A stretch of DNA of 64,000 nt. It comes from Amphiscolops sp. MND2022. Lineage: Eukaryota. Position numbers and translations under genes: made by a program. Shown here piece by piece: positions 7,953-57,744 of this stretch. Position 1 is the first letter of the stretch. Every line of letters begins with the position of its first letter. The DNA is taken from positions 57,290,001 to 57,354,000 of the forward strand of contig OZ076409.1 in NCBI GenBank assembly GCA_964187785.1, in the 5' to 3' direction. The notes under the pieces are model-generated. The model did no database searches. It had not been told where the DNA came from and worked only from the letters and a program-made list of their open reading frames with translations.

Positions 7953-8701
7953 TAATTTTTTTTACAACTGTTCCGAAGCAGAAGGTTTTCTTTTTTTTTC
8001 GCATTATGAGACCCCCTTTTTGGGCTTTGAGAGACTTTTTTCTCGAAATTTTTTCAAAGACTCCAAAGGGTCCCCTTTCAATTTTTTGAAAATTTGTAAC
8101 AAAATGGATGTTTAAAAATCTCAAAGGGCCCCCTTTTACAGTTTTCGGCATTGTGAGATTTTTCAAAGGAATAATTTTTGTCTTAAAATTAGGTTTTCTC
8201 AGGCCCAGCACGCTATATTCGATTTTTGTTTTCTTTAAAGATCGGTGTTTTTTCTATGCGACTTTTTTTAAAACTTGTTTTCATCGAAGCACCCGTAACG
8301 TTTTACGAGCGTGAAGGCCTCCTCAAGGTTTTCGCCACAAAGCGACCTACCGGAGATCTTCATCAAGATAATTTTCAAAATTTTCTTCAATTTTCTGTTT
8401 TTTTAAAGGTTTTCCGTTGAGAAAGATGGTTTTTTGCTGTTTCCAGTTGGGGAAGAATGGTTGTCGAGACTTATGCGTATCCCTTCGGGTATTTTTTGCG
8501 CTGTAAAATTCATGATGGAAACAATGTCCTTTTACCCTTGGTTCTCCGTATGATATTGCTTATTTGGTCTTCTGCAAAAGTTCGCAAGTGTTTGCGAAGC
8601 ACGACTTCACCTCTGTGTTGAACATGAAAGCCTAAAAAAAACAAATAATACTGTGCCCCGCATGATCCTATTTTTAGATGTAGAAATGACGGAAAAACTT
8701 C

Positions 8702-26630: not shown

Positions 26631-27241
26631 ATGGGAGAAGACCAATACAATAGACCAGAGCCCAACTGATGAACGGATGCTGTCTGCAATGGTTAAAACT
26701 GAAGTACAAATAAATGTTATCACTGCTGGATCAGTCAGACCTTTGAGCACTTTTGGTAACGTTGAAAATTCACGGAAGCTACTTTCTATTCATTTCAATC
26801 TAACGATTCGTCGCAACAAATGATGTTCAAAATAAACCTTTTTGGTGAAGGAATGTGAAGTGAATGGCTGTTAACTCAGGAAGCCTCGGAAATATTCCAA
26901 AATCCGAGCACGTGACAAACCGCTGACGGTAGATCCTGGACAGTTGAAAGTTTAGCTTAATCCATTAATCGTTAAAAAAACCGGTTTAATCAGTTAACAG
27001 CCATTCACTTCACATTCCTTCACCAAAAAGGTTTATTTTGAACGAGCATTTGTTGCGACGAATCGTTAGATTGAATTGAATAGAAAGTAGCTTCCGTGAA
27101 TTTTCAACGTTACCAAAAGTGCTCAAAGGTCTGACTGATCCAGCAGTGATAACCTTTATTTGTACTTCAGTTTTTTTAACCATTGCAGACAGCATCCGTT
27201 CATCAGTTGGGCTCTGGTCTATTGTATTGGTCTTCTCCCAT
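26631..27241. repeat. Long inverted repeat (foldback/MITE-like), ~245-bp arms, ~115-bp spacer
   Basis: 26631-26876 is the near-exact reverse complement of 26992-27241. Confidence 0.9.
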
Positions 27242-31642: not shown

Positions 31643-32163
31643 TATTATTTCTTCTTTAGCAGGAATATTGAAATCTCAAAATGTGTACTTTTTTTTCAGT
31701 ACAATTCTTGGCACGATACTGAATAATTCAGATATTTTGTTCGGCAGTGACTATAAGTGACTATAATTTCTCAAGCTGCCGACGACAATTCAATTCTCAT
31801 GTGATGGAACGAGCGAGTGGTGATTATGTATTCGTAAGCTGACGTCATTGAGATGCAGCGAGCGAATGTTCGTAATAGTGCTTTCGTTGCGCCGAGTTAT
31901 TGAGATGAAGCGAATGAGTGTTACTTTCGCGGAGAGCTTCGCCTGCATTCGAATATATATTTGCTTTAGTCTGAGATTTACTACTACTACTACTACTAAA
32001 AAACTGAATTGATTCTAGTCAACAAAAAGGAAATACTTGATGATATTTACGTGTACAGATATTTTGACCAACAGATTTAAAGGCGGTATAAACTGGTACA
32101 GTGATTAATTGTGCGCTAAATAATGATTAAACAGGAGTGTATCGGTATTCCAGATATGATTCT
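31643..32163 (+). mobile_element. HINE-like family B copy 4, left part, split by the giant LTR element; right part at 52143-52199
   Basis: Sequence resumes after the right LTR with ATTATTAATGA..TAAAGCAGAAATAATAGTGTGC, as in the other copies. Confidence 0.75.
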
Positions 32164-32613
32164 TGAGCTGTTAAAAATGAGTGATATTGTATTTCTTATC
32201 TCTTTTATAGAGTACATAAGAAGTCTAAGGTTCTTAACAGCAAATTCGTCTGAGGTACCAAGTTTACTGACTAGCTAGCTATTTCCAATATCCCTGAGAT
32301 CTCAGCTAAGTACTTCTTTCAGATAGAAACCGTTCTTCAGTTAATACTCTAATTTTCTTCAAGTAGACATACTCTACAAATTCGTCAATGATTACAATGT
32401 TATATTGACATGCTAACTAATCAATAGCGACAACAGTAAGAAGAGTTAGATGGGTTACTAATTATATTGTCACAAGGCATTATTAAGTTATTTTCAAATG
32501 TCATCAATCTAGTCAACTTCAGTTAACTATAAATGAAGTGAGATCTGTCTCTCTCAAGTTGGGTGACTTCGAGATATTCGAAAGTTCTTGAGGACATCTA
32601 TCATGGCATCACA
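32164..32613 (-). repeat. 3' LTR
   Basis: Direct repeat of 51687-52138 with scattered substitutions. Confidence 0.92.
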
Positions 32614-33589
32614 ATCAACTGGGAATTTTTGAAAGTTTAAACTATATATCTGCACTTTGGAAGTGTGGAGTTCTGAAGTTTTGTTTTGCATGAATTTTTG
32701 TTCTAGAAGCGTACCATACTTAAGGAGTGAGAACAACCTAAGACGATTTGACTTCTTACGTAAGTGACGTTTCAAATTGGTGCAAAATTTCAGTTTTCTT
32801 GACTGACAGTTGTGTTCAAGTTATTGATTGACAACTTGTTTACTACTTTGTGTTAATTTTTCGTTTCTGCGTATCTGCCATCGGCTCATTTGAAAAATCC
32901 ATTGTACATCAACATGAGTTATTCTGAATTGAAAACTTTTCATGTTGAAGAAAGATTCTACGAAGTTGTCAATGAGTTGTGAACAGTGGCGGGTGTTTGA
33001 ACCAAAAGTGAAGAAGTTTTGAAAAGTCTAGGTTCGAAGTGAAGTTCATTTTCAACAAAAGTGACTAGTGAACGGATGCAAAGAGTTTGTTCTTGTTCCA
33101 CAGTTGAAAAGTTTCAAAAGTTTGAAAAGTTGTTGTACCAAATGATAATGAGAAAAATTGTTAGTTTTTCATTCACATTTATGGGGTGAAAATTTTTCAA
33201 GTGGAAATTTTGAAAGAATTAGGAAATTCAATTGCATGGGCGAAGAAGAAAATTTTAGTGTACTGTAAAAAAAACCTTAGAAAACTTTTGTTCCATAAGG
33301 ACTTGTGTACTGTAAAAGAAAGATGGATAATAGTTGTATTATAAAGTGGGTATTATAAAAGAGCGTATATAAGAGTATACACAGACAATTGTTGCGGTTA
33401 GAGAGTAATTATAGGAGGGTATTATTACGATTATAAAGCACTAATTATGGGGGGTTATGCGAAAATAAGTATGACTACAAGATTACAATAGACATCGATT
33501 ATAAGAATACAATAAATATACAAGTTTATTTTGAGTTAGTTAATGTTAATACAGTCTTTGAGTTAGTTAATGGTCGTACAGTCGAGTTT

Positions 33590-34553
33590 TAAAGTTTGAA
33601 ACATTCATCTGCGTTGATCGACGAGTACCAGTTGGCAGTTGAAAGTGAAGAGAAGGTAGATGTGGAGTTGACAAAGTCCAGTTGAAGTTGAGTCAGCGAA
33701 GTTGATGCGGCAAGGATCAGTTGGAGTGGGTGCTGCAAAAACCAGTTGAAGAAGTGAGACGAAGGGTGTTGTGGACCAATCGATGAGGAGTTGAAATTGC
33801 TGCAACGCAGTGATGAAAGCTTGCTGTGTGGTGTGGAGGAAGAGCAGTGAAGGTTTTCACTCAATAACATTCATTTGGAGAAGATGAATAGTTTAAAATG
33901 TTGAGATGAAGATCAGTGAAGAGAATCATTTTTTAAGGTTAGTATAGAGGGTGCTGTCGCGGAGCATATGTTTTGTGGCGTTTAGGATCGTAAACCTCTA
34001 TTTTTTGAGTGTATCCAAATTCAAGGAGTACTTTATTAAAAGCTTCACAAGCTTCGTCTATGGCTACTCTAAAGTAGTTATCTTTTGTTGTGAACGAGGA
34101 GTTGAGAACAAAAACCGCGTTTGAAGCAGTTTCGCAGATAGCAACGTTAGGGCCATCGAGGTGAAGACGAGCGTACTATTCTTCTTTTTTTATTTTGCAT
34201 ACATTATAGAGCACTTTCAGAAATGAGCGTTTCGTAGAAGGTGTAATTTGATCATTGTTTATCTCGAGTGAAAGTTTAAAGGCCATCGTGTGAAATATGG
34301 CTGCTTTAAGACTGTGGGCTGTAGTAGAAAGACTTAATTTTGTTTGATATGTTTTAGAACCTTGCGGAGCCATTTTGTGAAGATCGATGAGGAAGAGTTG
34401 ATGTTCGAGCAGAAAAATTTTGCGAGAAGTTCTGATAATATGGCTTAACGAATGATGGTTTGAAGAAGGCAAGGAAGAAGGAGGAAGAAAAATAGATGTT
34501 TCTGAAACAAAGAAGTTGTGAAAAAGTCAAGAATGTTCAACTTATGTTCCATA
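33590..34553 (-). pseudogene. Accessory ORFs 5 (~34553-33939) and 6 (~33930-33590) of the LTR element, unknown function
   Basis: Long reading frames on the element sense strand broken by isolated stops (e.g. ...KIKKEE*YARLHLDGPNVAICETASNAVFVLNSSF...HPLY*). Confidence 0.45.
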
Positions 34554-34852
34554 AGGTTTGGTGCTAATTAGTATCAACTTGGGGTGCTAGTATATTTGTA
34601 CTGTACATTGTTTGTGAACCTCTTTGTTAGTGAACGTCTTGTACTGTATTTAAGGAAAACTTTTGCATGTGTGTAAGATTAAACAAGAAAGTTATATGTA
34701 CCAAAAAGTTGAGAAAAAGGAGTCTTAATAAACATGTAGGTAGAGAAAGTTCGAAAGGTAAATTAGAAAAGCATTACCTGTATTAAAATTGAAAACATAA
34801 TTGTTCCATAGAAGAGAAAATTAAAAAAATTATGTATTACCTGTATGAAGAT

Positions 34853-36143
34853 TTAATGAACATTAGCTGAGTTAAAAAGAGTAGTCATGGATTCAAGAGC
34901 AGACTGTATTGCTTGTGAGGATTGTGTTATGCGTTGTGAGTCTAAGTCAAGTGATTGCAGGAGTTTGTGTGTTCTGTCATAGCAATGTATTTTATGTGTG
35001 AGAGTGGTGATGAGAGTGTCAGAGGAATTTCGTTTATACGGGTCCAATAGGTGTGTTATATCTTTAATAGTACGACTATTGAGAACTGATGAAAGTTTTT
35101 CAGGAGTATTTCGAATTGGTGAGCTATGTTCAATAGGAGGTGGTTTATGTTTTGCTTTTTGTTCTGGTTGTACCATGTAAGAAAAAAATTTGGCAGAAAT
35201 GAGGAGTAATTCGTTGTATGAATGCGATTGTTTAGCGAGAGCAGTATAGTATGATTTGTCTTTATCATCTAGTGGACAAGAAGCAAAGTGTTCGATTACT
35301 GTAAGAGGTTTGGCAATTCGTGTGGGAATATTGCAAGGCAACAGAAAATCATCGAAATGAATGAGATTTTCTTGAGGTACAATAAGTGGTCGTGATGTGT
35401 CATTGTAAGGAAATAGACAGAAGTATTGTTTGATAGGGTCATAGTTACGAAGGTAGCCGGTTATGCGAGAGTGGTTTATGGTATATAAATGTGTCATATT
35501 GAATGGAGAACAATATTTGTAGTTGACAAAAAGATAGTTCTGTGGGTTTGTGTGTTGTAAAAATTTAGTGTATGTTTGATGATGAGAAGCTTTTTGTGAC
35601 AGTGAGAGAAAGGAAGGATCAGATTCGTCTGTTTTCGAATCATAAATAGATGGGCGTAAAAAATTGAACTGAAGAAAGAAAATTTTAACGCCATTGTCGA
35701 GCCAATATTGGTATGGAGCCATGATTTTTGAAATGGATGTGAAAAAATCTTGATTTTTATCGTTTAGACGAAATGTGTAGTCTGTAGGATGCATATAGAG
35801 AGAAGTTAGTTGTGCTTTGAACGTGAAATTATCTTGTGATAGAATTGGGATCAAGTGATCATCACGAGTTGTAGAAAGTCATGGTTGAGAAGGTAGTTTA
35901 GGTGAGGAAAGAAAGACAGGATCTTTCATTCTTCGGAGGCGGTGGTACTTCATGTGTACTATCAGGAGGAGTGTGAACTTTTGTGGGTGTAGTATGTTCG
36001 ATTTGTTCAACTTCTTCCGCAGGATGAGCATTTACTTGGTCAATATTTTCAAGGAAGAGAACAGGAGAGTCGTTAAAAAGAGGTTGTGTGGTGAGATCAG
36101 AGGATGATGGTTCTAGTTAAAGATCAAGGTGTGCTTGTGTCAT
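34853..36143 (-). pseudogene. Accessory ORF4 downstream of env, unknown function
   Basis: 333-codon open stretch 35854-34853, extendable through lesions to an ATG at 36143 preceded by a TCTTTCAG acceptor. Confidence 0.6.
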
Positions 36144-36352
36144 TGTGAAAAAAGCTGAAAGATATATAAGATTTACTAACGAGTGGCTCTATTTACTTTG
36201 GTTGATGTTTGATTTATCACGCGGATTGTTACCGTTGGATGAGGTGGGTGGTGAATTTGAATTTGGAGATCAATCGTGAAGAGTAGTTGAGAAACGTTAG
36301 AGTTGGAAGGCAAGTGTTCTATATCAGTTTTGAGAGCAGAATGATATCAGTT

Positions 36353-39341
36353 CTAGAAAGATGGCGGAGGAAAAGGATAATTTGTTTTAGAATAAACTTT
36401 GGTAGGAGTTTCCGTACCATTTTTGACAGAAGTGTTATCAGCTCAATTGTCATGTCGAGTGGTTAAATTGTCATGTTGATTTGGATAATTGTCATGTTGA
36501 GTTGCATTGGTAGTAGAATAATTAGGTAGAGGTGGATTTTGTTGTTGTGAGGAAGGAAGTATAGGGATTCGATAATTAATTGTGGGTTGAGAAAGTGGTG
36601 ATCGTTTTTGGAAATAATTTAAATCTTGTCAAACGAAATTTGTTGGGACGTTTTGTATAGAAAGGTGAATGGGAAGTAATACCATTTGTTTCGTTAATTG
36701 AAGGTGTTTGATTGTCAGAAAAAGGATTTAAAGTGTCAGAAAAGTTATCTTGTGATTTAGAGGTTGGAAATGCTAACCTGGGCTTTTTTCGATGTGTATG
36801 ATTTTGGTCATTCACCATTTCAGGTGTGAGAATATTAAAGAAGCCATGTGCTATTGAACTAAATAAAGTAATGTTTTGTTTAAGAATATATTTAATTGCT
36901 GACGAAGTCAATGTGCATTGCAGTCCAGCTAAGTAAGTTTTTTTCCACAATAGTCAACTTCATTATGAGCGCCTTTTAGAAAAAAGCAAAAACCCCAGAG
37001 AGATTCGAACCTGCAGCCTCCCGATTGCACGGCATAAGTGTTGACCACTGTGCCATAGGGACGTCATTGAACAAAGTTGAACTGTTGAATATATACGCAT
37101 GCGATTAAAATAATATATTTACGCATATTAAAATAATCGATGTCTTCGTCATGTGTTGCGAAGCACCGCTTCGCCACTGTGTGGAAATTGTTTTGTATAT
37201 TTTTACAATGAGTGAGAGAGTTGCTTGTACGAAAAGAAATGTAGAAAAATGTATTCCACATTGAGTTAAAATACAACATGGTTATCCGAACAATGAAATG
37301 AAAGCATCTGAAAACCATGTAGGTGTAAAAAGAGCAGTAAGATTTATAAGTTTGTCATGTAACCCAATACGTAATGTATTGTTTGGATTTTCATGAGGAG
37401 ACTTTGTTTCATAGTTAGGTGTATTAGAAGAAATAAAGGAGTAACGAAGAGTTTTTTCCAAAGTTGAAGTGTGGAATCAGAATGTTTCGAAAATAGAATT
37501 CTCTTCCAAAATTGATGAAGTTCAGCATTAGAATATATGCCAGCATCTTGAGCTGTGAAAGTGTTAGGACGTATTGTAGTTTTATTTGAGAAGGTGTGAA
37601 CATTAATGGTGGTTTTCGTTTAATAGGTTCTGGTCCAAGATTGTAAAAATCTTGATCATCAGAATCAGGATCTAGTTCATTAATGTTCTTTGGAATATTA
37701 TCACATGCGAAAGAAGTTGCATAGTCATAAGTTTGTCTTGTAATTGGATCAACGTACATAAGAGTATTTTGAAGTGTATAGGTATACGATCAAAGCATCG
37801 GTCAGCTTTGTATAAAGGAGAATGAAAGTGTGGACAATCATAGAGCCAAGCAGTTGAACCTTCAACATATAAGAAGTTACTTCTGTTTCCTGTTAAAAGG
37901 AAGCCAGCAAGTTTAGGATTTTGAACTGTCATTGCTAGTATTGTAAGGAGCTGGTTTCATTCCAATTCGCAGACTGTTTGAAGAGTATTAAGTTCTTGTA
38001 CTGTAATTGAACGAAAAACATGGTTAATAGTGTAATCATTTTTTGTAATTATATGGGCGTCATAATCTATTGGTGCAAAGTTGTTTGAAACATTTGTTGC
38101 AGGAAAAATAATTTTGTTATTAGAGTTGTCTAGTACATTTTAACCAGAAATATATTCGTTAATCATAAGATTGGGGATTTGGTTGTCCTGTATGCTTATT
38201 AAAACCATCTGTATAGGTTTCAAAGAGGTCAGAATATTTTGTAGAATAAAGGGGGTCAGGTTTACCACAGAAAGTTTGAGCATTTGGAAATACTTCAAAA
38301 CGTGAAAGACTTGGGTTATTTGGGTTTTGTGTATGTGGAGCTTGTACATTAGGGTGTATTGTACCTTTAATACCAGAAGTTGCCTCAGGTTTTGTTGAGT
38401 GTGAAGAGTGTACAAAACAATCAGTTTCAATCCAATAGCGATCTTGAAGTTTTGTCATTCGTCCAATAAAGTCTTGTAGTGTAAAAATTAAACAAAAATC
38501 ATCACTAAACCAAACAAGGGTGAAAGAAGTTTTGGTAGTTGGTTTGCAAAAAACATCTGCAAAATTGCAGGGTAAGGTATGTCCATCTATTATCATAACG
38601 TTTTCTGTATCGTCATATGTAAGTTCAAGTTCAGAAACTTCTAGTCGCCAACTGACTAGATTTACTTCGTATCGATGATGAGCGGGACAGTTGTGATAAG
38701 GGTTTCTATTTAGGTCATCTATCCAATCTTCGTCACCAGGCATAAAGGTGAAGACCTGTGTACATTTTGTTCAATTTGTATACTGATTTATATACTGTAA
38801 AAGGGGTCTGAAATTGTTCTAAACGTTCGTGAAAGTAGTGGTCTTCTAAAAGTGTAAAAGTTTTGTTGTAGTGTAAATTGTTTGATATTTTTTTATTTGT
38901 ACCATTTAGATGTCTAATAATATTCTTGCATTCTAACGGATCAAGGGTAACAAGAAGTGGCATAGTGTTATGGTTCCATACAGTTCTATCAACACGTCGA
39001 TATTTGACTGAGCCTTGAAAACAAGTTTTTTTTCCTTTTGGCATAGGCGACACATTGGTAGGCTTTAATGCGTTTAGCTTTTGCTCTGACATAGACTCGG
39101 GCTTCAACACTGGCGTGTTGTGTGTTTGAAGGAGCTTCTGTACATTGTTTCACATTGAGTAATTTAAATTGTCTTAAATTATATTACTTGGCGCAATCAT
39201 AATGGGAAACCATAAGGTTTGTAGTATTTGGATCGTCTGATGGGAGCTAGTCGTCTGTATCTGTTGATGATATAGATACAGAAGTTGTAGAAGTTATTAG
39301 GTATGAATAGAGTAATATATTAGTTGTATAGAGGAATACAT
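36353..39341 (-). pseudogene. env: env-like glycoprotein, probably class III fusion type (chuvirus G / herpes gB-like)
   Basis: Hydrophobic leader; VSHYDC..YNLRQFKLLNVKQC; VTLDPLECKN; TVCELE.NQLLTILAM.VQNPKLAGFLL; AWLYDC; RCFDRIPI..YVDPITRQ; C-terminal hydrophobic anchor and cytoplasmic tail. Confidence 0.7.
36898..37183 (+). mobile_element. 286-bp Helitron2/HINE-like insertion (family C) interrupting env; carries a tRNA-like unit on the minus strand (~37062-36990)
   Basis: 5' TGACGAAGTCA vs 3' TGTCTTCGTCA inverted motif; perfect hairpin GCGAAGC-ACC-GCTTCGC; removing it rejoins env as KTIS|IKYIL; no TSD. Confidence 0.65.
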
Positions 39342-39346
39342 AAAGT

Positions 39347-42300
39347 CTAAAATGAAGTTGTGTATTTAGGTCCAGAATAGGGGTCGTAAAACACGATTTT
39401 GCCATATGTCAAAAAGGGAATATTAGGATCTCGTTCAAAATCTATGTGTACACTTTCAAAAAGAGCAGGAGTAGTATTGTGTTCTATTTTAGCAACGTGA
39501 AATACTGGATGCGGGTTGAAACCTTGAAATGTGACTTTAACTTCAAACTTTATTTCTAGATTTGGATTGAGAAGTCATTTAAGTTCTGTTTCTTTTCTTT
39601 CGTGTGAAAGCAAATTGTTATTTGCAATAAAGCGTTCTGTGAGGATTGGAAAACGGGGATCGTGTGATGGATCGTATATAGTAGTTCCGTCAACTCGAAT
39701 GGGGTAATCTGCAAAATTAGGAGTTGGAGGTCTAGAGTGTTCTGCAGTATAATATTCAGGTCTTCTAATATGTGCAGGTACAGGAGTAGGTATTAAAACT
39801 TCAGAAAAAAAGTTTCCTGAAAGGAAAGCAGTTTGAGCGTCCGATGATAGTAATGAAGCGGTATCTAGACCAAATGTAAAATATGATTAGGGATCAAATT
39901 CCGAAGGGAGCGTTTCGGAAGTTAGAGGTTGAGCGTGTTGTCTTGCAAGTCGTAGAGCAGAATTACCTAAGAGCAGAAAAATTAGGTGTTGAAGTGTCTG
40001 TACTAAGTCGACGTGAAGGGAGGTTTCTGAGGTTATATCTATGATGTGGGACAAAAAGTGAACTTGTGGATTCTTGTTACGGTATGTATTCAGAAGTATT
40101 GTCTAAAAGGTTACATAGTGATGTAGACGGTTTGCAAAGTGGTTTCAGTGGCGGTTATAGTTTTGAAGAGGTTGTACTGATTTCTGATGGCAATTGTAAT
40201 GGAGGTTATTGTGTGTATTCAGTATCGGGAATATGTACAAGATTGAGTTGAGGTTGAAGTCTACGAGTTTTAATATCGGTAGAATGTTTGTAATTTACGT
40301 TCAACAGATGGTTTGGTATGTGTACTAAAGGAGTATTACTGGGTGATGTTTGAGAACGGGAAGTAATAGGAATTTCGGTTATTGGTGCTCGGCTTGTAAT
40401 AGATGAAGATGATACAGAAGATGTGTCAGTGTCAGTGATTAGTGATCTTGTTCTTTTACAAGGTGGTAGAGGAGTTACATTGCGAGTTTGGGATGTAGTA
40501 GTGATTTGAGATTCAGTATTAGAAGATAGACTTGGAGCTGAAGGAGATGTATCAGAAGAAGAATCCAGGATTATAGTGTATACTTGAAATGTCTTCACCT
40601 AGGGTATGTTCAGTTTCAAGTTTCGATCATTTTCGGTCGACTAGTTTTCATTGAGTTAGAAGAGTGAATGGTTATTTGTAGAGTTTTGAAGGTGGTATAT
40701 AGAGTCTGTAATCCATTTGTGGTTGACGTCTCAGAGTGTAATGAGTTTTGGTAGTTCTGTCTATTGGAGAAGGAAGTAAATTAGATTGGTCTTGGGATAA
40801 GTGTCGGGATATGTCAATAGAGACGTCAGTCTGAGGAGTATTACTTATCTATTTGAAAGGTGAGTTGTCTTAGAGTTTGTTAGGTGAGTTGTCATTTGAG
40901 GAAGGAGTTGGACATTCGTAATTTGATGTATTTAATGGTGTCGTAGGTTTTTGAAGTGATTCATCATCAGAAGTTGATTCGTCGGAATTAAAAGGGGGAG
41001 AGTCACTATTTGCATATTTAATAGGTTTTGGAATGTGAAATTGAGTGGAGTCTGAGAAACGCATGAAACTACGCAAATGTGGGTACAAAAGTTGGTTCTT
41101 CTGGGTAGTAAGGGATTGAGTGGTTTCTGTGAACGTGTCCTGTGGAGCCATCTTGTGAAAGAAGTTCATAGGTGACGTCAGATAATCTATCAAGAATTTT
41201 GTATGATCCTATCCGAAGCGGTTTTAGTTTACCAGAGTATTGAACGTGAGAGAAGTTTCGTTTTAAAACAAATGTACCAAAAGGGAGTGGTTTACCTTCG
41301 TGGTAAGTTTTTGTAATATATGCATGTGAGGTAATTTTTTGAGACTGTTTTCATATACTGTAGAATATATTTGTAACAGCAGTCTCTACAGCAAGAAACC
41401 ATTGTGGAATGGGTTTTGACAAAGTTCTATAGAAGAAAGGGTTCAAATCTGTTTTGTCATAATGGGAGTGTTCTGGAAGATGAGAACAATATGTAGAGAT
41501 ACATGTTTTAGAAGTATTACGGTTGAGGTTCAAGTCAAAGGTAAGAGGAATTCTGGGTAGTGTGTGAAAGACAATTTCATGAGAAGAAACATTGAGTTCT
41601 GAAAGTGGTTGTGAATTATGTTCATAAGCATACATGTGAACTATGAAAGCCCAACCTTTAGGAGTGTCGTGGAGAAACATTCGAAGGTGTGTGCCAAGAT
41701 TTCTGGGTTGTACTTCTACAAGACCATTTGTCCAAGGAGAATAAGCTGTTCTGGGAGAGTGTTTAATTTCCAAAGGCGTACCAAGATGTGCCATTTCTTT
41801 ATTAGCATATTCTGAACCTCGATCAGTAACAAGATATATGAGTGGTCCAAATTTAATGATCCAATGATGTAACAGAGTTTTTATAGCAGTTTTGGCGTTA
41901 TTTGATTTGATTGGTATTGTAACCACAAAGAGTCTGAAGGCGTCAATTATGACATGAATGTAAGATTTGTTGTGTGAAGGGGGATTGATAGGTCCTTTTG
42001 TATCCATAGCAATACGGCAGTTGAAGATGGAGCATGTTCTGAAAAAAATTGTGTTGGAGCAGTTTGGATTTTCATATTGAAGTGATTGTTCCGTTGACAT
42101 TCTTTAGAGTCATGGATGAAAATTGAGAGCCATTTTTCAAGGAATGGGATGTAGTAATATTGAGAAAATGTATTGTATGTGATTTTGATTTTTTTGTGAG
42201 AGTGGTCATGGAGTTTATTGAAGACTGTTCGAAATATGCGAAATGGAAGACAGATTCGGATTGTATCACGTATGATAATTGGAGAAGAGGTTTGATTTGT

Positions 42301-45300
42301 TGCAGGAGAATTCGCATTTGTTGTGTAAAAGCTAATGAGATTTGTGGAGTTTTCTCTGGATAGTTGTGAAAATCGCTTGTAATATGCATGTAAAAAAGGA
42401 GTGCCAGTGATGAGGAGATTAAGAAGTTCTGGCTTGTCATTACGAGTTAACCAAGAATATACAGTTCGAAGAACTGGGTCTTGGGATTGTTGTTGTTGAA
42501 GAGTTTTGAGGTCTAATGAATAATCGTCAGGGAGAAAGAAACCTTGAAAATACTTTTTGCATTTGAAAAAGGATGTATCATAGAATGGTATTATTTGTGA
42601 ACAATGGGTGGTAGGGCGAGAATGTGATAGTACAATTATTGCTGATGCAGATGGTGGACATTGGTGTTTTTATATTTGAGTAACTTTCAGTTTTATCATG
42701 TAAAGTGTTATCTGAAGTTAAAGATTAGTCTTGTTTTGGAATTTTGGTATATATATGTTCTTCATCATTACTTCTAATATCAGTATCATTGAGTAAAAGA
42801 GATTGTTGATGAAGTGATTTGTTGTCCTTTTTGACAGGTGCCTTAAATTTTGTTTGAAATGTAGTTACAGATTTGAATGAAAAGGAGTTTAAGGGTTTGA
42901 CGATAATATCTTTTCCCTTGTTATTTATTCGTATCGAAAATTGGTCTGTTCCATAATCAGCAAGTATTGGATGGGAGTCATTTTTTTGATGTGGTAAAAC
43001 TTCATGTTCAATTAAGTAATGTTCGGGTTCGAGTGTACCATCTTGTAATATAGCAAAATCGATTTGTTGTGGAAGTTGTTTGTGTTTCAATTGGTTAAGT
43101 TGAAGTTCAGCTTTCGCAAAAGAATGACTCAACATGTCGGTTTTGAAAACTTTGTTAATTGCATTTGAGCTCTATAAAAACGTGGACCGAGGTTACTTTT
43201 TTTGTAAAGCAATGTGGTTTGTGATCAGTGAAGACTTGTATTGGATGTGGGGAACCAATAATAAGAAAACTGTATATCTGAAAAGCGTGTACTATACCAA
43301 GGAGTTCACGATCGAGTGTAGAAAGTTTTTGTTCTTGTGGGTTCAATATACGAGAGTTGTAAGATATAACTTTCGTTTTATTTTCTTCGTTCAATTGGAA
43401 AAGAACAGCACCTATTCCAATAAGTGAAGTGTCTACTGTAATGAAAAATGGATGTTTTTTATTTGGTTTGGTAAGTTCTGTGTCAGAAGTGAGAGACGTT
43501 TTGAGATTTTGGAAAAGCGTTTCGTGTTCATCTGTCCATTTCCATGGGGTATTTTCATGTAAAAGATCGTAAAATGGTTTGAGATTAAGGTGTAGTTTTT
43601 CAATAATTTTTGTGTAGAAGTTAAGTGCACCAATGAAACTCATGAGAGCGACTTTTCCAGTAGAAGAAGGAATTTTGTGGATACCTGCACATTTTCTCAA
43701 GTTTCCTTTAGGTATAATAATGAGAGGGTTTAGATAAGTTGTACCATAAACTGGTTTGTCTTGTGGTGATGGACCAATTTGTTTTAAAATGTTATATTTT
43801 TCAAGTTCTTCAAGAAGAGCATTGAGTTAATCAGGGTAATGAATTGGTACTTTGGAAGGACGTTAGTTAATAAGTTGTGCATTGTGTTTCAATCGAATTC
43901 GAAAGGGAGTTGCAATTTTGCCAATATCATTTTTATGTGTTGCATAACATGTTTTGTATTTAAGTAGTAAGTTGCAAAGTGTAATGTACTCGGTATCGGT
44001 AAGGTCAGAGAACTGAAAGTTTACTTTGGTAATAAATTTGAGCTTTTCCGTAGTATATGATAGTGATGGGAAAACTTGATGTTTGGATGTATGTGAAGTA
44101 GGTTGTACGTTATATAGAGAAGTGTTTGTCTGGTTATATAGAATCATTGTTTGGTTGTGTAGTTTGTTGTGGTTGGAGTTCTTGAGTTGTAAGCGTATTT
44201 GATGTATATAGTGTAAAGGTATTGTCCTGATTTGTATAATGAATGGTGTCATTAGGAGTTTGATCATTTACGTGAGTTTGTGTTATGTTGTGAACTGGAT
44301 ATTGTATAATATTTGAACCATCAGTTATTGTAATACTTTGTGGATTATTCGTGGTTTCCTCAGAGAACTCTGTTACATTTTGTATTGTAGCTGTTTCAAA
44401 AGGGTCTGGCATGTTGTTGAAGTGTGTAGTTTCTGGGATTTGAAATATTTCTGTAGTGTCATCTTGATTGGTAAAAAAAAATTCTGTCCAGTATCATGTT
44501 GTAATATATGAGGGATATGTTCATCAGGCAAAGGTTCAGAAGTGAAAATAGGATTAGTATAAGGACGATTATCCGATGTTTGAGAATGTTTTATAATGAA
44601 ATTAGTATTATAATTGGTTAGTTCAAAATAAGTTATGTTAAATGAAAGAGGATCTCTATAGTAACAATGATTTTTGTATTTTTAATTATGAATGGTATCA
44701 ATTCAGTTTCTGGTAATGCCTTTGGGAAGTTAATGTAGGCATTCTGGTCTTGTTGTTTCCATATTAATTGGTAATTAAACCGGAAGAATTACAACAGGAT
44801 GTGTGAAAAGACTTTTTTTGTGGTATTGTATCTTCATTAGGTATAATGTTTTGGAAGAATCTGTATTGAAATTGTTTAATTTGTGCTTTATCTTGTTGTA
44901 ATCGATGATGAGGTTTATTGTGTCGTGTTATTGTGGTTTCGAGATCTGGTACTTCAAAATATTCATGTTTTCCTTTAAGACTTTCTAGGTGAGAAAGAAG
45001 ATTTACTGGTGTTTCTAGATTTTCATTACGTTCTATAAGTTCATGTATGTAATGAAAACTTCTTGTATAGATAAAGCTATATTTTGTGGATGGATTGTTC
45101 TATAATATGTTCCTGTATTTAAAACTTGAACTGGGTTTAAAATGATAGCGTGTACTATACCAAGGAGTTCACGATCGATTGTAGAAAGTTTTTGTTCTTG
45201 TGGGGTCAATATACGAGAGTTGTAAGATAAAACTTTCGTTTTATTTTCTTCATTCAATTGGAAAAGAACAGCACCTAATCCAATAAGTGAAGTGTCTACT

Positions 45301-47470
45301 GTAATGAAAAATGGATGTTTTGTATTTGGCATGGTAAGTTCTGTGTCAGAAGTGAGAGACGTTTTGAGATTTTGGAAAAGCGTTTCGTGTTCATCTGTCC
45401 ATTTCCATGGGGTATTTTCATGTAAAAGATCGTAAATTGGTTTGAGATTAATGTGTAGTTTTTCAATAAGTTTTGTGAAGAAGTTAAGTGCACCAATGAA
45501 ACTCATGAGAGCGACTTTTCCAGTAGAAGAAGGAATTTTGTGGATAGCTGCAATTTTTGAGCGATAAGGTTTAATTGTATTGTAACCAATTTCATGTCCA
45601 ACGAATTTAACCTTAAGAAGCATGAAAAAAGATTTTTCTGGGGCCAACTTGAGGTTGTTTTTTGTACTGATAATTTGGAGTTGTTCTATAAGTTGAAACA
45701 TGTGTTCTTTAGAGTTTGATAAAAGTAAAATATCGTTAATATGAACTAGAGCAAGACCTTGTTCGATAAGAGTTTTGAAGAAGGTTGACATTTGTTTTGT
45801 GAAAAAATTTGGAAGTCTTTCGAGACCAAAAAAGCCTCGTACGAAAGCGAAGAATTTATCACCAGATGAGAAACTTGTAAGTTTTATGGTTTCTTCGTCA
45901 AGGGGTGTTTGTGCATAGACGTACTTGAGGTCAATTGCACATTTATACTTTTTATTTGCGCGTGCTAATTGGGGAGCAAGATGTTCAATACGCCATGATT
46001 CATCAGATTGTTCTGTGTTTGAGTTAAGATGTCGAGCGTCTAATACACATTTTCTCAAGTCTCCTTCAGGTATAATAATGAGAGGGTTTAGATAAGTTGT
46101 ACCATAAACTGGTTTGTCTTGTGGTGATGGACCAATTTGTTTTATAATGTTATATTTTTCAAGTTCTTCAAGAAGAGCATTAAGTTAATCAGGGTAATGA
46201 ATTGGTACTTTGGAAGGACGTTAGTTAATAAGTTGTGCATTGTGTTTTAATCGAATTCGAAAGGGAGTTGCAATTTTGCCAACATCATTTTTATGTGTTG
46301 CATAACATGTTTTGTATTTAAGTAGTAAGTTGCAAAGTGTAATGTACTCGGTATCGGTAAGGTCAGAGAACTGAAAGTTTACTTTGGTAATAAATTTGAG
46401 CTTTTCCGTAGTATATGGTAGTGATGGGAAAACTCAATGTTTGGATGTATGTGAAGTAGGTTGTACGTTATATAGAGAAGTGTTTGTCGGTATATCATGA
46501 TGTGTCATGTACAATTGGTGTAGCGAAAAATGATGGAAAAGGGTTGTATCATCTTTATATTGTGAGGAGTATTTAGTTTGTCGAATAATTTCTGTAATTT
46601 CAAAATGGATTGTATGGGTGACATTATGTATTAAAGTGTTAATATCAGTAACATGATAATATTTGGGTTTTTAGTTTGTAACTGGAATTTCAATATATCC
46701 AATGTGTCCTGTAGGTAGTGTTGCAATATGATTTGTAGATTTTTGTATAAGAGTTGATCATGTGTCTGGTTTGTCTTCTGTGAAAATTTCTATAAAGTTG
46801 AATGTTGTACGAAATTTAGTAGAAAACTGTGTGGAACTGTAGGAACGAGTTGATTTTGTGGTGTAGTTTGAAAACGTAAATAATAGTAGTTCTTTATTGG
46901 GAAGTGTGCAATTTTGGAAGAGTTGGGTTTCAAACTTATTTGTGTTTTAGAACTAGTTCTACAAATGTAAGAAAAGTATGGGTAATCTTTTGATAAATAC
47001 GATGAAAATTTTGTATAGTTAGGATATGCTGTTGAATTGTGTTTAAATTGTAATGTAAAGTCTTGTATGTTTATATTTTGTATGTTTTCCTCAAAGAAGG
47101 GTGTTCCAAGAATATTGTATGTTATATCTGCTGTTTCAAACGGTATTGTAAATTGACGACAATCGTCTTCAATCGTTGTATTTAAGGTGATAGTAACATA
47201 GTGTAGGATGGGTACTTCAGTTTGGTTTGCGACAGTTAATGTTTTTGAAGGGTTGGGTGTACTGTTTTAATTAATATTTAGGAGTCTTGCAATAGTATTA
47301 TATTTGGGATAGTTTAATACCGATATAGAAGCACCACTATCTAAAAGAAATGATTTTTCTAATCTGGATGGATTTCCACGTTGAATCTGAGTTGATGGTG
47401 TATGGGTATAAAAAGAATAGAACCAACTTGTAGGTGTTACGGCATTTGCCATCTCAGTTGGGTGATACAT
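39347..47470 (-). pseudogene. pol: pol: protease, RT, RNase H (partly duplicated), integrase and long C-terminal extension
   Basis: LLDSGASISVL (PR); CVLDARHLN, AIDL, degenerate HINDILL (RT); FITVDTSLIGLGAVLFQ and ELLGIVHA (RH); AMDTKGP, IIDAF, LVTDRGSEY, SPWTNGLVE and a GPY-like motif (IN). Confidence 0.88.
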
Positions 47471-47479
47471 GTGTACTTC

Positions 47480-50400
47480 AAATTTAAATGGGTCTGTTTG
47501 ATGTTGTGATTGTATTGTATCAAGTTCATTTCTTGTATTTGAATGTGAACGTGATCTAGAATATCTAGAATCTCGTGGTCTTTAAGGTTGTCTATAGGAC
47601 GATGTGTATCTTGTAAAATTGTTGTTATTTCTTGAATAGGAACGTGATCTATATCGATGACGAGAGTCTTGTCTATAAGGAGATCTATAAGAAGATCTAT
47701 AAGGAGAACAGTATGATCGGGAATCTCTTCTGTAGTTGTCATATCGTGATCGAGTGTTTTGTGGAGTAGTATTTTTGTCATAGCTGAATCGCTCTCTTGA
47801 TGTAGAGCGATATCTGTTTTGTGAGTTTGTTTTTGTTATAAAAATTAGTTCGTGACGTACTTCTGTTTCTTTAGCGTTTATCATGTCTTTCTGTTCTATC
47901 GTTAGAGGGCGAACCAAAGTACTGAACAAATGATTTTTGAGGAGATTTCGATCGAGCGTAAGCATCTCGTTTATCTTCATATTCTCGTTGTTTTTTGAAA
48001 CAGGCAGAGATGGAGTGGTTTGTTCTATGACAGTAAGAACAATATTTTTTATAGGCAGGTTTATTATTATTATTTGGGTCGCGAGGTTGTGTAAACATAA
48101 GTTGTTCTTGTTGAGAAGAGTCAAGAGTTTGAGTTTGTAATTGATTTGTAATGTTCAGTTCTAGTGCAAGATCATGTGTTCTAGTTTTATCATTCGCGAT
48201 GTCTTCGGCATCAAAGAGTTTTACGAGTGTATGAAAGGGAAGAGAGGGTTCTAAAACAGTAGAGGTGTGTTTCACTTGTCGTTTGTTATCAAAGTCTTCA
48301 AGGTTTTGAGGAAGTCTTTTTGTGAATATTTCGTTACATTTCAAATTAATTGTAGATGCATTCTCTTTACACCAGCCTTTTTCAACTAGCTGTGCAAAAT
48401 GACGTACTGTTTCGTTATCTTTTTTAGTAAGGTTGAGGGCTTCAACTTGAGCATAGTAGGCGTATTTCTGTGATGAAAATTGCTTGTTAAAAGCTTGTAC
48501 AAAGGCGTGCCAATCTTGTTTAGAAGTGTCGTTTAAACGGATATACCAGCTTAGAGCTGTACCTGTTAAAGAGCATTGTATGAAAGCCATTCTTCGAGCG
48601 TGCCAAAATATATATTCGTGGTCAGACGTAAGTTGTAAACCCAAGGAGAATGTTACACGTGCTTCAATATGTTGTAAGTATTCTTCAGGTGTATAGTTAT
48701 GATTTTGGCCATCAAAGGGTTTAATAGGTTCAGAAATTGATGTAGAAGAATTTATGTATGTTGGTTGTGAAATTGTAGGTTGAGATATTGTAGATGGGGG
48801 AATTGTATTGTATGTAGGTATATTGGAGGTGTTAGACGGTATATTTGGTGGATTTATAACAGGTTGTCAATATGTGGCATTTATGTAAGGATCAGTTCTA
48901 ATAGTTGTGGATGGAGGATTGGGTATCTGAATTTGAGTGTTATGTAATCTTCGTAATGTATTTGATTGTGGAGATGTGGAAGAAAGATTTAGAGTTTTGG
49001 GCTCGTTGTTGTTTGTTATAGTTGGTTGTATGTTATTAGGGTTTGTACTAATGAGACTATACGATAAGGGGTTAGTTGGGATAGTTTGTAATGGAGGTCT
49101 AGAAAGATATCTAGAGGTAGTATAGTTGGGCAACGGATTAGACTGGAGAAGAATTTTTTGTTAATGCAGGTTGCAGATTTCGTGTTTGAGTAGTTAGAGC
49201 TGGGGTCTATGCTAACGTTGGTACTTCTGGTTGTGTTGTAGGAGTTGTTGTTTGAAATTGTACAGTATTTGTGACTTGAGTATTGGAAGATCCTTGTTGA
49301 GTAGAATTATGTGGAGTAGTTAGAGGAGAATATTGTGAAGGAGGAGGAGGAGGATCATTGTTTGGTTGTGTAGTTTGTTGTGGTTGGAGTTCTTGAGTTG
49401 TAAGCGTATTTGATGTATATAGTGTAGAGGTATTGTCCTGATTTGTATAATGAATGGTGTCATTAGGATTTTGATCATTTACGTGAGTTTGTAGTATGTT
49501 GTGAACTGGATTTTGTATAATATTTGAACCATCAGTTATTGTAATACTTTGTGGAATTTTCGTGGTTTCCTCAGAGAACTCTGATACATTTTGTGTTGTA
49601 GCTGTTTCAGAAGGGTCTGGCATGTTGTTGAAGTGTGTAGTTTCTGGGATTTGAAATAATTCTGTAGTGTCATCTTGATTGGTAAAAAAATAATCTGTCC
49701 AGTATCATGTTGTGATATATGAGGGTTATGTTCATCAGCCAAAGATTCAGAAGTGAAATTAGGATTAGTATGAGGACGATTATCTGATGTGTGAGAATGT
49801 TTTATAATGAAACTAGTATTATAATTGATTAGTTCAAAATAAGTTTTGTTAAATGAAAGAGGATCTCTATAGTAACAATATTTTTTGTATTTTTAATTAT
49901 GAATGGTAGTAATTCAGTTTCTGGTAATGCCTTTGGGAAGTTAATGTAGGCATTCTGGTCTTGTTGTTCCCATATTAATTGGTAATTAAATCGGAAGAAT
50001 TACAACAGGATGTGTGAAAAGACTTTTTTGTGGTATTGTATCTTCATTAGGTATAATGTTTTTAAAGAATCTGTATTGAAATTGTTTAATTTGTGCTTTA
50101 TCTTGTTGTAATCAATGATGAGGTTTATTATGTCGTGTAATTGTGGTTTCGAGATCTGGTACTTCAAAATATTCATGTTTTCCTTTAAGACTTTCTAGGT
50201 GAGAAAGAAGATTTACTGGTGTTTCTAGATTTTCATTACGTTCTACAAGTTCTTGTATGAAATGAAAACTTCTTGTATAGATAAAGCTATATTTTGTGGA
50301 TGGATTGTTCTTTAATATGTTCCTGTATTTATATCTTGATCTGGGTTTAAAATGATTTGGAATGGATTTTGGGAACGTAAAGGTTCTAGTGTTTTGTATG

Positions 50401-50958
50401 GGAAGTAATATAAATAAGAGTCACAATGTTCTCTTACCAAAGGAATAGTATCTATATGATGAGGTTCTGTTTCAAATGAGAGTGGGTTGGTGTACTGAAA
50501 TATGATGTTATTGAGAAATAGTATTACATCTCGACGTTGGTAAGTAGATAGTAAAATTGGAAGAGGAAGCATTGTAGTATTATATGTTTAGTTAGTAAAA
50601 TTGGTTTGCCATAAAGGGTATATTTAGTGTATAATAAGAAATTTTGTATTAAATTTGGAGTTATATGGTAAGATTTGATCTACAAAAACAATTTGGAGGA
50701 ATATTGTAAGTATTGTACAAAGAAGAGAGAGGAGTTTATTCTGAATGTAAGGTATAAGTGTGGAAAAAGTATGGTATATACTGAGAAGTCCAAAAAGAGG
50801 TAGTATTATACTTGTAAACATAAAGAAGAGAGTTATATTCTAAAACTTAGGTATGAAAAGTACTAAAAATTTATCAAAGAAAAGAGCAATACCAGCAAGG
50901 AATGCAAAAGCGAACCAAAAAAACTGATAAACTTAACTATATCATCAGCTGAAGGCAT
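47480..50958 (-). pseudogene. gag: gag with a long N-terminal extension (hydrophobic segments, T/Q/P-rich spacer, capsid, CCHC knuckle, RS-rich tail)
   Basis: FIQCSLTGTALSWY..WHAFVQAF (retrotransposon gag); CSYCHRTNHSISAC zinc knuckle; RSRS/SPYR repeats. Confidence 0.8.
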
Positions 50959-51668
50959 TTATATATGGAACGAGAAAGTAGTATTTTAGAAATCGTAATA
51001 AAGTATATATTATAGTGAAGTATAGGGATTGAAAGTTATTTCATAGATTAGGTTAAATGTTTATGTAAAATATTTGGATCCGTTGGACTTTGTTTTGGAA
51101 AAGTGTTGTCTATAAAGTCTACTGAAAGTTTTTCGAAAGATGATGTGTACTAAAATAAAGTGTTATCGTTTTATGTACTCTAGGTGTGGCAACTTTAAAG
51201 TTGATCCAAGAGGCTAGAGCCAAAGCATTTTTACTAGCAGGAATTGCTGGATAGCACTGTAGAAGGGCCAACACGTATCGCACGTCTGCAGTTGGAACGG
51301 AAAAAGGAGGAGAAAACACCAACACGAATTCACTCAATGGTGGTTGGAACGAAAAATTTTCAACTGACAGGAATTACGTGGAAGACGCAGTCAGAACCAA
51401 AGAAATTTAACTGACAGGAATTACGTTTGTTAGGCAGTCAGAACCGAAGAATATAAATTGACAGGAATTACGTTTTGTAACGTGGTCAGAACCATAGCAA
51501 CACGGATCAATTTCGTAAGAAATTGGTTGCAACGTTGAGTTAGTAGCTCTGTACTATACAGAGAGGAGGAGAGACAGTGTGTCGAACAAAGAGATTACTG
51601 ATGAAAACGTCGAGAAAGGATGTACAACAAGGGTGAATTTGGGGTACTAGAGGTAGAGAAAAGAGAAT

Positions 51669-51684
51669 TTTCGTGATCGCACCA
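51669..51684 (-). promoter_or_regulatory. Primer binding site TGGTGCGATCACG
   Basis: TGG 2 nt inside the 5' LTR end; complementary to a tRNA ending ...GCACCA (Gly-type acceptor possible, unverified). Confidence 0.75.
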
Positions 51685-51686
51685 AT

Positions 51687-52138
51687 TGAGCTGTTAAAAA
51701 TGTGTTCAATTGTATTTCGTATTTCTTTTATAGAGTACATAAGAAGTCTTAGATTCTTAACAACAAATTTGTCTGAGGTACCAAGTTTACTGACTAGCTA
51801 GCTATTTCCAATATCTCTGAGATCTCAGCTAAGTACTTCTTTCAGATAGAAACCGTTCTTCAGTTATTACTCTATTTTTCTCCAAGTAGATTCACTCTAC
51901 AAATTCGTCAAGGATTACAATTAGTTAAATTGACATGCTAATTAATCAATAGCGACAACGGTAAAAAGAGTTAGATGGGTTACTAATTATTTTGTCACAA
52001 GGCATTATTAAGTTATCTTCAAATGTCATCAATCTAGTCAACTTCAGTTAACTATAAATGAAGTGAGATCTGTCTCTCTAAAGTTGGGTGACTTCGAGAT
52101 ATTCGAAAGTTCTTGAGGACATGTATCATGGCATCACA
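51687..52138 (-). repeat. 5' LTR
   Basis: Direct repeat of 32164-32613, adjacent to the PBS. Confidence 0.92.
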
Positions 52139-52698
52139 TTCTATTATTAATGAGAGGTTAAAGCAGAAATAATAGTGTGCATCGGAGGGTCCTATTTTTA
52201 TCATTGGTTTCAACTTTCGAGGAATCAAGGCGCGAAAATTGGAGGATCTGAAACCTGTGTGGAATACATATTCAAGGCTTTTTGGTGTGCTCTTGGGTCT
52301 TTGTATCTTTTTAAACCAAAAACAAAACTTAGATTTTGACCTTTCATCCTTTTGCTGCAGTGAATTACACATTGTTGGTCTCGCGTTTTTTCAGTGTGGT
52401 CTGGAAACGAATTTTCTTGGGTTCATTTTTTAAAAAGTTTGTACCAAGTATTATTTTCCAGCATATTCCGATTAGGAAAAAATACAGTCTTGTTTTCCCC
52501 CAAAATTTGCCATGTCTCCAATTTGTTCTCTACAGAAACCGGGGTTTTCCTCAGAAGTCAACGACGAAAAAGCGCATGAATGTTCATAGCTCACGCGTTT
52601 GTCAAAAAGAGCCAGAATTGTGTTTTTTTTTCAATTGTTCATTATATGCAATTTTGGTTGAATTTCATATGGAAAAGGAAAATATTCAAATCCAACGT

Positions 52699-57585: not shown

Positions 57586-57744
57586 GTTAGTCCGTTGTAG
57601 TGTTAAAACGTAAAATATGTTTCTTTGAAGTCACTTGCACAAAGTTTAATGCAAAATGGAGAGCCAGAATCAAGCATTAATGTCTTGAAGCTACAGTTTC
57701 GCATGAGCATCGTTCAACATTTGTATGTCTTATCAAAATTTGTT

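Follow-up and report, generated by a model that had tools for sequence, protein, structure and literature searches.

The envelope-carrying Ty3/gypsy elements known as "errantiviruses" have been surveyed with three ORFs considered, and the main text of the survey, searched by term, makes no mention of accessory genes, of splicing, of anything downstream of env, or of an ORF4 (PMC13524379). Its HSV/gB-type members have LTRs, a primer site, gag, pol, and env, the domain order of gypsy, an env of the chuvirus/gB-like family, and many near-identical copies. All these traits are found in an element of Amphiscolops sp. MND2022, which adds to them a gene between pol and env and two genes after env. 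The first filter of the survey, which for non-insects capped the distance from pol to env at 1,000 nt and the total at 10 kb, would tend to exclude such an element. Among gypsy-type elements, the precedents that we found are single cases: CERV, the small ORFs of MDG1, and the ORF3s of rotifers. Cer1, an LTR retrotransposon of C. elegans, makes a spliced RNA encoding the novel protein CERV, which is needed for export of the unspliced genomic RNA (PMC10309623). Spliced RNA and novel accessory proteins are common to both elements, but the single accessory gene of Cer1 encodes a G-protein-like domain along with a Cys loop, whereas here there are several genes, in which no such motif was seen. The LTR elements of bdelloid rotifers also have extra ORFs after pol (the varied ORF3), with one captured enzyme or env each, whereas several orphan genes accompany env here (PMC5408684). 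In the literature searched, outside which most subscription papers fall, the layout was not found described for gypsy-type elements.

The window, which is the whole stretch of DNA analyzed (64,000 nt of contig OZ076409.1), contains a decayed copy of a Ty3/gypsy element of ~18 kb with a class III-type env, lying on the minus strand. The following features were identified:
51686..52141, minus strand: 5′ LTR, 93.6% identical to the 3′ LTR
51667..51684, minus strand: primer-binding-site-like motif starting with TGG, directly after the 5′ LTR and also present in the second family
50840..50958 (low end approximate), minus strand: leader ORF1, a 40-codon peptide in open copies, broken here
50624..50821, minus strand: leader ORF2, a hydrophobic peptide of ~79 codons in open copies
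40700..50572 (low end approximate), minus strand: gag-pol, a single ORF of more than 2,600 codons in open copies
39347..40568, minus strand: ORF-X, 410 codons, Ser/Thr/Pro-rich, without AUG, broken here
36353..39405, minus strand: env, ~901 codons in open copies, with its ATG at 39405, broken here
36181..36318, minus strand: small coding exon of ~47 codons without AUG, between env and ORF4
34853..36143, minus strand: ORF4, of 442 codons where open; in this copy the frame is interrupted near 35.9 kb
33939..34373, minus strand: ORF5, 150 codons in open copies, 144 here with one internal stop
32617..33087, minus strand: non-coding block directly before the 3′ LTR, with stops in all frames
32163..32616, minus strand: 3′ LTR, 93.6% identical to the 5′ LTR

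An earlier note on this DNA had described an LTR element on the minus strand with env followed by ~3.7 kb, and this is confirmed, as env ends at 36353, 3.74 kb from the 3′ LTR. Copies with open frames are abundant and multiple ones are near-identical; open copies have LTR pairs 97.8–99.8% identical, and several copies are flanked by 4-bp target-site duplications. An ORF-X motif has 714 exact matches, a count that covers unspliced copies only. The Pfam families of gag, RT, RNase H, and integrase follow in this order within the single gag-pol ORF, which in the window copy is decayed and partly duplicated, and they are compatible with a Ty3/gypsy placement of RT. As for the polypurine tract, neither the aligned copies nor family B show a purine run immediately upstream of the 3′ LTR; the Rfam search returned nothing real and tRNA gene calling returned none. 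A second family (B), ~67% identical in env, repeats the layout and gene order, with an unrelated gene of 298 residues replacing ORF5 at its position. In family B, dN/dS is 0.12 for ORF-X, 0.08 for env, 0.07 for ORF4, and 0.27 for ORF5B. Wrong frames and spacers, used as controls for dN/dS, gave about 0.45–1.5 or more. The 20 young loci used were selected for an open ORF4.

The env gene, interrupted in the window copy by a 285-bp insertion at 37183–36899, encodes a signal peptide and membrane anchor helices, and has a dN/dS of 0.04–0.09. It matches the Pfam family Monjiviricetes_fusion (PF24664, E 1.9e-24; 86 and 96 bits for a cutoff of 27) and has no match among PDB sequences. It is not a retroviral class I env and belongs with the class III-type family. 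Upstream of gag, leader ORF1 (dN/dS 0.23) encodes one hydrophobic membrane helix, and a similar peptide is found at its position in family B; leader ORF2 has a dN/dS of 0.24. Two small selected ORFs before gag, one of them for a membrane peptide, are also found in MDG1 elements (sORF1 and sORF2; PMC11952523), which lack env and splicing, whereas the window element combines small ORFs with env.

ORF-X, the largest unusual gene and one overlooked by the earlier note, sits between pol and env, overlapping the start of the latter (dN/dS 0.01–0.30 in family A). A CUG at its start, in a strong context (A at −3, G at +4), is present in 63/63 young, 13/14 old, and 12/12 family B copies, and it is the sole CUG in ORF-X (CUG share of Leu codons, 0.8–1.7%). 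AUGs are depleted from ORF-X in both family A (2 vs. 10.5 expected, P 0.002) and family B (0 vs. 8.1 expected, P 0.0003), a depletion absent from env, ORF4, ORF5, and gag-pol. It is weaker when only out-of-frame AUGs are counted (P 0.08 and 0.02), and the low-complexity N-terminus of gag is likewise Met-poor (1 vs. 7.5). We consider it probable that ORF-X begins at the CUG and that env is reached on the same RNA, with leaky scanning through the AUG-poor ORF-X delivering ribosomes to env. The AG at 39347, previously proposed as the acceptor of env, belongs instead to the TAG stop codon of ORF-X inside the env frame, and it is present in 11/18 close and 1/31 other copies. A non-AUG first ORF, a long stretch cleared of AUGs, scanning to the next ORF, and splicing to express an accessory gene farther downstream are traits of rice tungro bacilliform virus (RTBV) and badnaviruses (PMC5902531) that the element would share. 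These are plant pararetroviruses with an AUU start and scanning toward the polyprotein (PMC5902531), whereas an LTR element would here use CUG and scan toward env; the likeness is one of sequence signature alone, namely a non-AUG start and an AUG-free upstream ORF.

An array of four accessory ORFs had been proposed after env, two of which prove to be coding. ORF4, put at ~430 codons with 333 open, is a real gene, slightly longer in open copies and open over 341 codons in the window. Its dN/dS is 0.07–0.19, it is stop-free in 116/117 other scored matches, and its identity is 36–50% across at least three lineages (36% for the family B homolog). ORF5 is real as well, with a dN/dS of 0.04–0.15 (0.14 pooled, dS being near saturation in several pairs) and 613 homologous proteins, but the ~200 codons attributed to it span stop to stop and exceed its actual length. 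Both genes therefore show the conservation (dN/dS < 1) by which the earlier note proposed to check them. Among young copies the frame is open in 20/20 for ORF4, for which they were selected, and in 18/20 for ORF5. The other two ORFs are not coding. Compared with 20 related copies, ORF6 (33592..33930, minus strand; ~110 codons) has a dN/dS of 0.71–1.11 whichever of the three frames is read, and its frame in copy L065 is open in 1/20 young copies, that one being L065 itself. The ORF placed near 33.2–32.8 kb lies in a region (33.2–32.6 kb) where young copies have stops in all frames, at 5.6–6.7 per 100 codons. A seventh ORF candidate was also rejected.

No membrane helix occurs in ORF4 or ORF5, and both contain a short run of basic residues. 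Neither has a match in Pfam, PDB sequences, or the ESM Atlas, nor an RNA-binding motif, and no sequence link was found between retroviral accessory proteins and the proteins of the element. The AlphaFold models are poor (pLDDT 37 and 52); fold searches gave no E < 0.001, the best Z scores (7.2 and 5.5) corresponding to common helical matches. Metagenome and viral contig scans yielded no confirmed relative, and a search for longer fused forms of ORF4 had no result, which is weak evidence. The best 150 of 584 representative homology matches are unnamed and for the most part fragments. The idea, prompted by a sequence pattern, that ORF4 contains an SH3/Tudor-like barrel found no support. P0296 is a distant relative of ORF4.

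Between env and ORF4, the small exon has one frame with 0–0.4 stops per 100 codons and dN/dS of 0.20 and 0.35, and its entry frame differs between two subfamilies. Lacking an AUG itself, it must depend on an exon upstream. The splice signals of the region are as follows:
36319..36320, minus strand: AG, candidate acceptor for the small exon and ORF4, in 7/7 close and 31/33 other copies
36175..36180, minus strand: donor D2 (GTTAGT), whose junction with the acceptor at 34502 skips ORF4
34502..34840, minus strand: intron of 339 nt, GT-AG, between ORF4 and ORF5, with donor D1 (CAG|GTAAT) and acceptor A5
33310..33311, minus strand: acceptor-like AG in 16/19 close and 29/29 other copies, with no conserved ORF behind it

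The AG at 36319 likely serves as acceptor for both the small exon and ORF4. The acceptor formerly assigned to ORF4, at 36155, is a private mutation, its AG being found in 0/20 close and 0/26 other copies. For ORF5, the TACAG at ~34845 has GTAAT after it and is instead a donor, those near 34780 and ~34650 have their AG in 8/17 and 5/15 copies, and the working acceptor is 34502. Of the acceptors suggested at 33260–33320, the AG at 33310 is conserved, but the probe for a leader junction there had 0 matches, and the AG at 33263 is restricted to the subfamily of the window (19/19 vs. 2/17).

Splicing is seen at the DNA level, in genomic copies from which introns are exactly absent. The intron 34840–34502 is missing in this way from 12 copies (L101–L112): among 40 natural-junction matches scored, 14 span the junction, 12 of them exact GT-AG losses and 2 not. 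The exact loss 36180–34502 occurs in three copies (L151, L152, and L187), which are 92–98% identical to the reference, and the GT of D2 is kept in 20/20 and 32/35 copies. Both introns were thus removed from RNA that was later reverse transcribed. Eleven junction copies were traced upstream and none had lost an additional intron; in nine of them pol, ORF-X, env, and ORF4 are colinear save for unrelated deletions. The five junction copies checked have paired LTRs, 96.0–99.8% identical. No junction copy was found in family B. The spliced mRNAs formerly postulated for the accessory proteins hence correspond to real splicing, with two donors (34840 and 36180) and one shared acceptor (34502), but the junction from the leader to an acceptor is found in no genomic copy.

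The exact deletions might instead stem from template switching by reverse transcriptase, or from one old deletion spread by recombination. The copies are indeed mosaic between subfamilies, the first junction has a microhomology of 2–3 nt (AG or CAG), and there are the two junction-spanning matches that are not intron losses. Yet microhomology is absent from the second junction, which shares its terminal AG with the first; both deletions begin at GT; and among 31 deletions of at least 40 nt in 20 old copies the only one with GT-AG ends is the intron 34840–34502 itself, the other 30 lacking such ends. Moreover, flanks track different unspliced relatives: junction copies are dispersed in the tree and 7/11 are nearer to an unspliced than to another spliced copy, which indicates that intron loss recurred. 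We regard this explanation as very improbable. A further reading, in which the ORFs arose by chance in debris captured from the host or a transposon, is scarcely credible at all: it holds for ORF6, the 33.2–32.8 kb frame, and the 285-bp env insertion, and no named relatives were found outside the family, but most young copies keep the frames of ORF4 and ORF5 open, with dN/dS well below 0.3, and ORF4 is at the same place in the second family.

The AUG of ORF5 is the first on RNAs spliced to 34502, so that ORF5 would be read from them, and the choice of the 36180 donor probably switches between ORF4 and ORF5. The downstream proteins likely come from subgenomic RNAs, but leader splicing would be dispensable if these RNAs began at an internal promoter, as those of foamy viruses do, or if ORF4 were reached after env by reinitiation or scanning. 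The best leader donor was joined to an acceptor in 0/11 candidates among genomic copies; its location in tandemly repeated sequence makes its conservation ambiguous. Of the candidates for a leader junction, 0/5 at 36319 and 0/2 at the candidate acceptor of ORF-X proved to be junctions, and the probes recovered point variants only, or nothing. In addition, the spacer between env and ORF4 is AUG-free in most copies, and in one copy of family B the 380 nt ahead of ORF4 contain no AG. Against this stands the conserved AG at 36319, which opens an AUG-less coding exon in need of an upstream one; and since leader-spliced RNAs would seldom be reverse transcribed, their absence from DNA is weak evidence. 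These RNAs may lack a packaging signal. We hold an internal promoter, reinitiation, or scanning to be rather unlikely.

Since most copies keep the introns, nuclear exit of the genomic RNA would as a rule have to precede any splicing. In this, ORF4 or ORF5 could act like Rev or CERV, with the 3′ block as the RNA element, a role that we suggest only tentatively. Between subfamilies, this block has 75–89% identity per 100-nt bin vs. 48–68% upstream, and it is likely a cis-acting element. Its folding is not unusually structured (z +1.5 and +0.5), and covariation analysis gave compensatory changes in 2/64 pairs. A donor-like GTAAGA at 32759 is conserved in 20/20 and 30/30 copies. With the same genes and introns, ORF4 and ORF5 may instead be transactivators, antagonists of host silencing, or particle components, with roles such as those of Tas, Bet, or Vif. 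This possibility has somewhat less than an even chance. Family B swaps ORF5 for an unrelated gene, as expected of a host-facing gene, and neither an RNA-binding motif nor a structured response element was found, but the retention of ORF4 at 36–50% identity across at least three lineages, under strong purifying selection, is more like that of a core gene than of one in an arms race.

Accessory layouts of this kind are those of the foamy viruses, of HIV with Rev (PMC10309623), of HERV-K with Rec, and of MMTV with Rem. Complex Retroviridae such as these (PMC7828637) resemble the window element in having additional genes on the 3′ side of env, ahead of the LTR, in joining alternative donors to a common acceptor, and in a short coding exon where env ends. 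The element has selected accessory genes and alternative splicing in its 3′ half as they do, but its pol is gypsy-type and its env class III-type, so the common layout would be convergent. Quite probably, then, this is an env-carrying Ty3/gypsy element with ORF4, ORF5, ORF-X, the small exon, and two leader peptides under selection and with alternative splicing, likely making subgenomic RNAs and a nuclear regulator. A bolder proposal, and a doubtful one, is that gypsy elements of an invertebrate arrived on their own at the entire programme of a complex retrovirus, with at least six accessory coding units around a class III env, a splice switch between ORF4 and ORF5, CUG initiation and leaky scanning that couple ORF-X to env, and an ORF4 protein of a new family serving as a Rev-like export switch on a 3′ response element. 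Accessory genes and alternative splicing are usually taken as the mark of complex vertebrate retroviruses, and the presence of the entire layout in a family both young and abundant would show this design arising independently in Metaviridae. The family also offers three orphan protein families for study, and its intron-less genomic copies provide a way to map the splicing of an element without RNA data.

The copy under study belongs to family A and occupies one interval of the window:

52141-32163, minus strand: LTR element, LTR pair 93.6% identical, with internal duplications

This element has Pfam matches to gag, RT, RNase H and integrase domains. The copy is decayed, and its env is broken up by a 285-bp insertion (37183-36899) missing from related copies. 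This insertion, which has tRNA-like motifs by eye and a 93% match inside another element copy, is probably a SINE; ARAGORN called no tRNA in it. Within gag-pol (43284-50356) there are large internal duplications, 96-98% identical, and other old copies show comparable tandem rearrangements. A DNA search of the 1.07-Gb genome gave old relatives at 76-93% identity. With the ORF4 protein, 118 of 7,867 candidates were scored, and 116 of the 117 besides the window have no stop within the match. Among these loci, twenty young ones (L061-L080), ~77% identical to the window, have their genes open: gag-pol as one ORF, ORF-X as a Met-free frame of 418 codons from stop to stop, env (~901 codons), ORF4, and ORF5. 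An ORF-X motif has exact matches at 714 places in the genome, and the LTR pairs of five copies are 97.8-99.8% identical. Copies L065 and L084 serve as coordinate references. Env matches Pfam Monjiviricetes_fusion (E = 1.9e-24). Gag has a very long N-terminal region (L084 2124-4100), ~680 residues ahead of the Pfam gag domain, that is under selection (dN/dS 0.22 over the first 260 codons).

The earlier note had proposed accessory genes between env and the 3′ LTR, and for ORF4 and ORF5 this is borne out. In pairs with L065, dN/dS is 0.07-0.19 for ORF4 (8 pairs) and 0.04-0.15 for ORF5 (8 of 12 pairs, the other 4 being saturated); the env ectodomain gives 0.04-0.09 and ORF-X 0.01-0.30. Pooling the window against 20 old copies gives 0.31 for the ORF4 core, 0.21 for its N-terminus, and 0.14 for ORF5. 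The frames are open in 16 (ORF-X), 10 (env), and 18 (ORF5) of the 20 young loci, and in all 20 for ORF4, a count biased by the choice of these loci on ORF4. The further frame, ORF6, does not hold up as a gene: its dN/dS is 0.22-1.41 in pairs with L065 and 0.71-1.11 pooled over the same old copies, and a similar frame is open in a single young locus. The 47 codons lying between env and ORF4 (dN/dS 0.20 and 0.35) are also coding, as are two small leader ORFs of hydrophobic character (0.23 and 0.24).

Splicing can be read from the genomic copies. In one old copy precisely the segment from 34840 (GT) to 34502 (AG) is missing, the only GT-AG case among 31 deletions of at least 40 nt in the 20 old copies (2 of the 31 are artefacts of the window's own insertion). 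When this natural junction was used as a probe, 40 of 424 candidate matches were scored and 14 span the junction, 12 of them by exact loss of the intron; of the remaining pair, one has a mutated donor and the other a microhomology deletion. No further intron is missing upstream in the junction copies, and the five checked for it have paired LTRs. The junction copies do not group as a single clade; an unspliced copy is nearer for 7/11 upstream and 6/11 downstream (n = 11, a coverage filter having excluded L101). Searching by pattern behind acceptor 34502 revealed a second donor, 36180, in two of three matches, and a third such copy was found afterwards; this junction cuts out ORF4 and has no microhomology. 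Donor 34840 is conserved in 16/20 close and 21/23 other copies, donor 36180 in 20/20 and 32/35, and the acceptor in 19/21 and 22/22. The first AUG past the acceptor is that of ORF5, and pooled dN/dS in the intron is 0.66-1.01 (window against the 20 old copies). Thus, spliced element RNA, as proposed, is supported by 12 copies for 34840-34502 and 3 for 36180-34502, whereas the proposed junctions from the 5′ leader were not found among the genomic copies probed. The individual acceptors fared worse: 36155 (for ORF4) is private to the window copy, 39347 (for env) is the ORF-X stop codon inside env, the TACAG at 34845 (for ORF5) is the donor, and the other TACAG motifs tested ahead of ORF5 are poorly conserved. 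The candidate acceptor 33310 is conserved, but its use was not seen. Between 33000 and 51500 the element has a strong strand bias, with a GC skew of +0.2 to +0.54 for the plus strand; since the sense RNA is G-poor, AG and GT sites are rare in it.

ORF-X is depleted of AUG in all frames (2 against 10.5 expected in family A, 0 against 8.1 in the related family B), while AUG counts are normal in the other ORFs; the out-of-frame depletion taken separately is weaker (P = 0.08 and 0.02). Near its start lies a CUG, the only one in ORF-X, with A at -3 and G at +4 in 63/63 young, 13/14 old, and 12/12 family B copies. We infer that ORF-X probably initiates at this CUG, with leaky scanning to env. This kind of signature, AUG loss with a non-AUG start, is described for rice tungro bacilliform virus (PMC5902531).

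Family B was reached through a distant ORF4 relative, P0296 (94 scored of 8,273 candidates), which has no identical match in the genome. Twelve loci share one gene order: leader ORFs, gag-pol, ORF-X (Met-free, 453-511 codons), env, ORF4 (~495), and a fifth ORF (~300), all under selection. ORF-X and ORF4 are homologous to those of family A (34% and 36%). The fifth ORF is not homologous to ORF5 of family A; in L175 (7525-8418) it encodes a Ser/Thr/Pro-rich protein of 298 residues that carries a Cys/His cluster as well as a basic patch. Some family B copies have a donor-like GT past ORF4 and an acceptor resembling 34502 ahead of the fifth ORF; a search for junction copies in this family found none.

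Downstream, block 33087-32617 is better conserved than its neighbours, yet it has stops in every frame in young copies and no folding signal was found in it; hence, it is likely a cis element. It contains a strong donor-like GTAAGA (32759; L065 8550), kept in 20/20 and 30/30 copies ~140-180 nt before the LTR, which could splice into flanking host sequence. No purine-rich tract directly precedes the 3′ LTR in either family (32630-32617; L065 8715-8730; L175 near 9720), so plus-strand priming may be atypical. Past the primer site, the leaders of both families carry ~47-nt tandem repeats (L084 1225-1320; L184 1120-1380), candidate packaging signals. Elsewhere in the window are host-like plus-strand ORFs at 8690-12861 and 56691-57590 (Pfam Sec16 TPR and Na/Ca exchanger), a tandem repeat of a 901-bp unit (58571-60476, copies 99.8% identical), a 610-bp inverted-repeat element (26631-27241), and, at 900-29100 and 53490-54900, numerous short dispersed repeats of either orientation built around CCC/GGG cores, probably miniature DNA transposons.

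Searches of Pfam, PDB sequences, and the ESM Atlas gave no name for ORF4, ORF5, or ORF-X. ORF4 and ORF5 are predicted to be soluble, each with short basic runs; their AlphaFold models are unreliable, and fold searches with them gave no hit with E below 0.001. Because most copies stem from unspliced RNA with working splice sites, a factor for export or splice control would be needed, or a cis element instead. Such a role for ORF4 or ORF5 is conceivable, if doubtful, by analogy with CERV, the export factor of the LTR retrotransposon Cer1 (PMC10309623); other host-facing roles have a slightly better chance, themselves short of even.

We found no comparable layout in the literature searched. By its anatomy, the element is a Ty3/gypsy of the gB-type env group (PMC13524379) and not a retrovirus, and it resembles complex retroviruses in gene layout and splicing.
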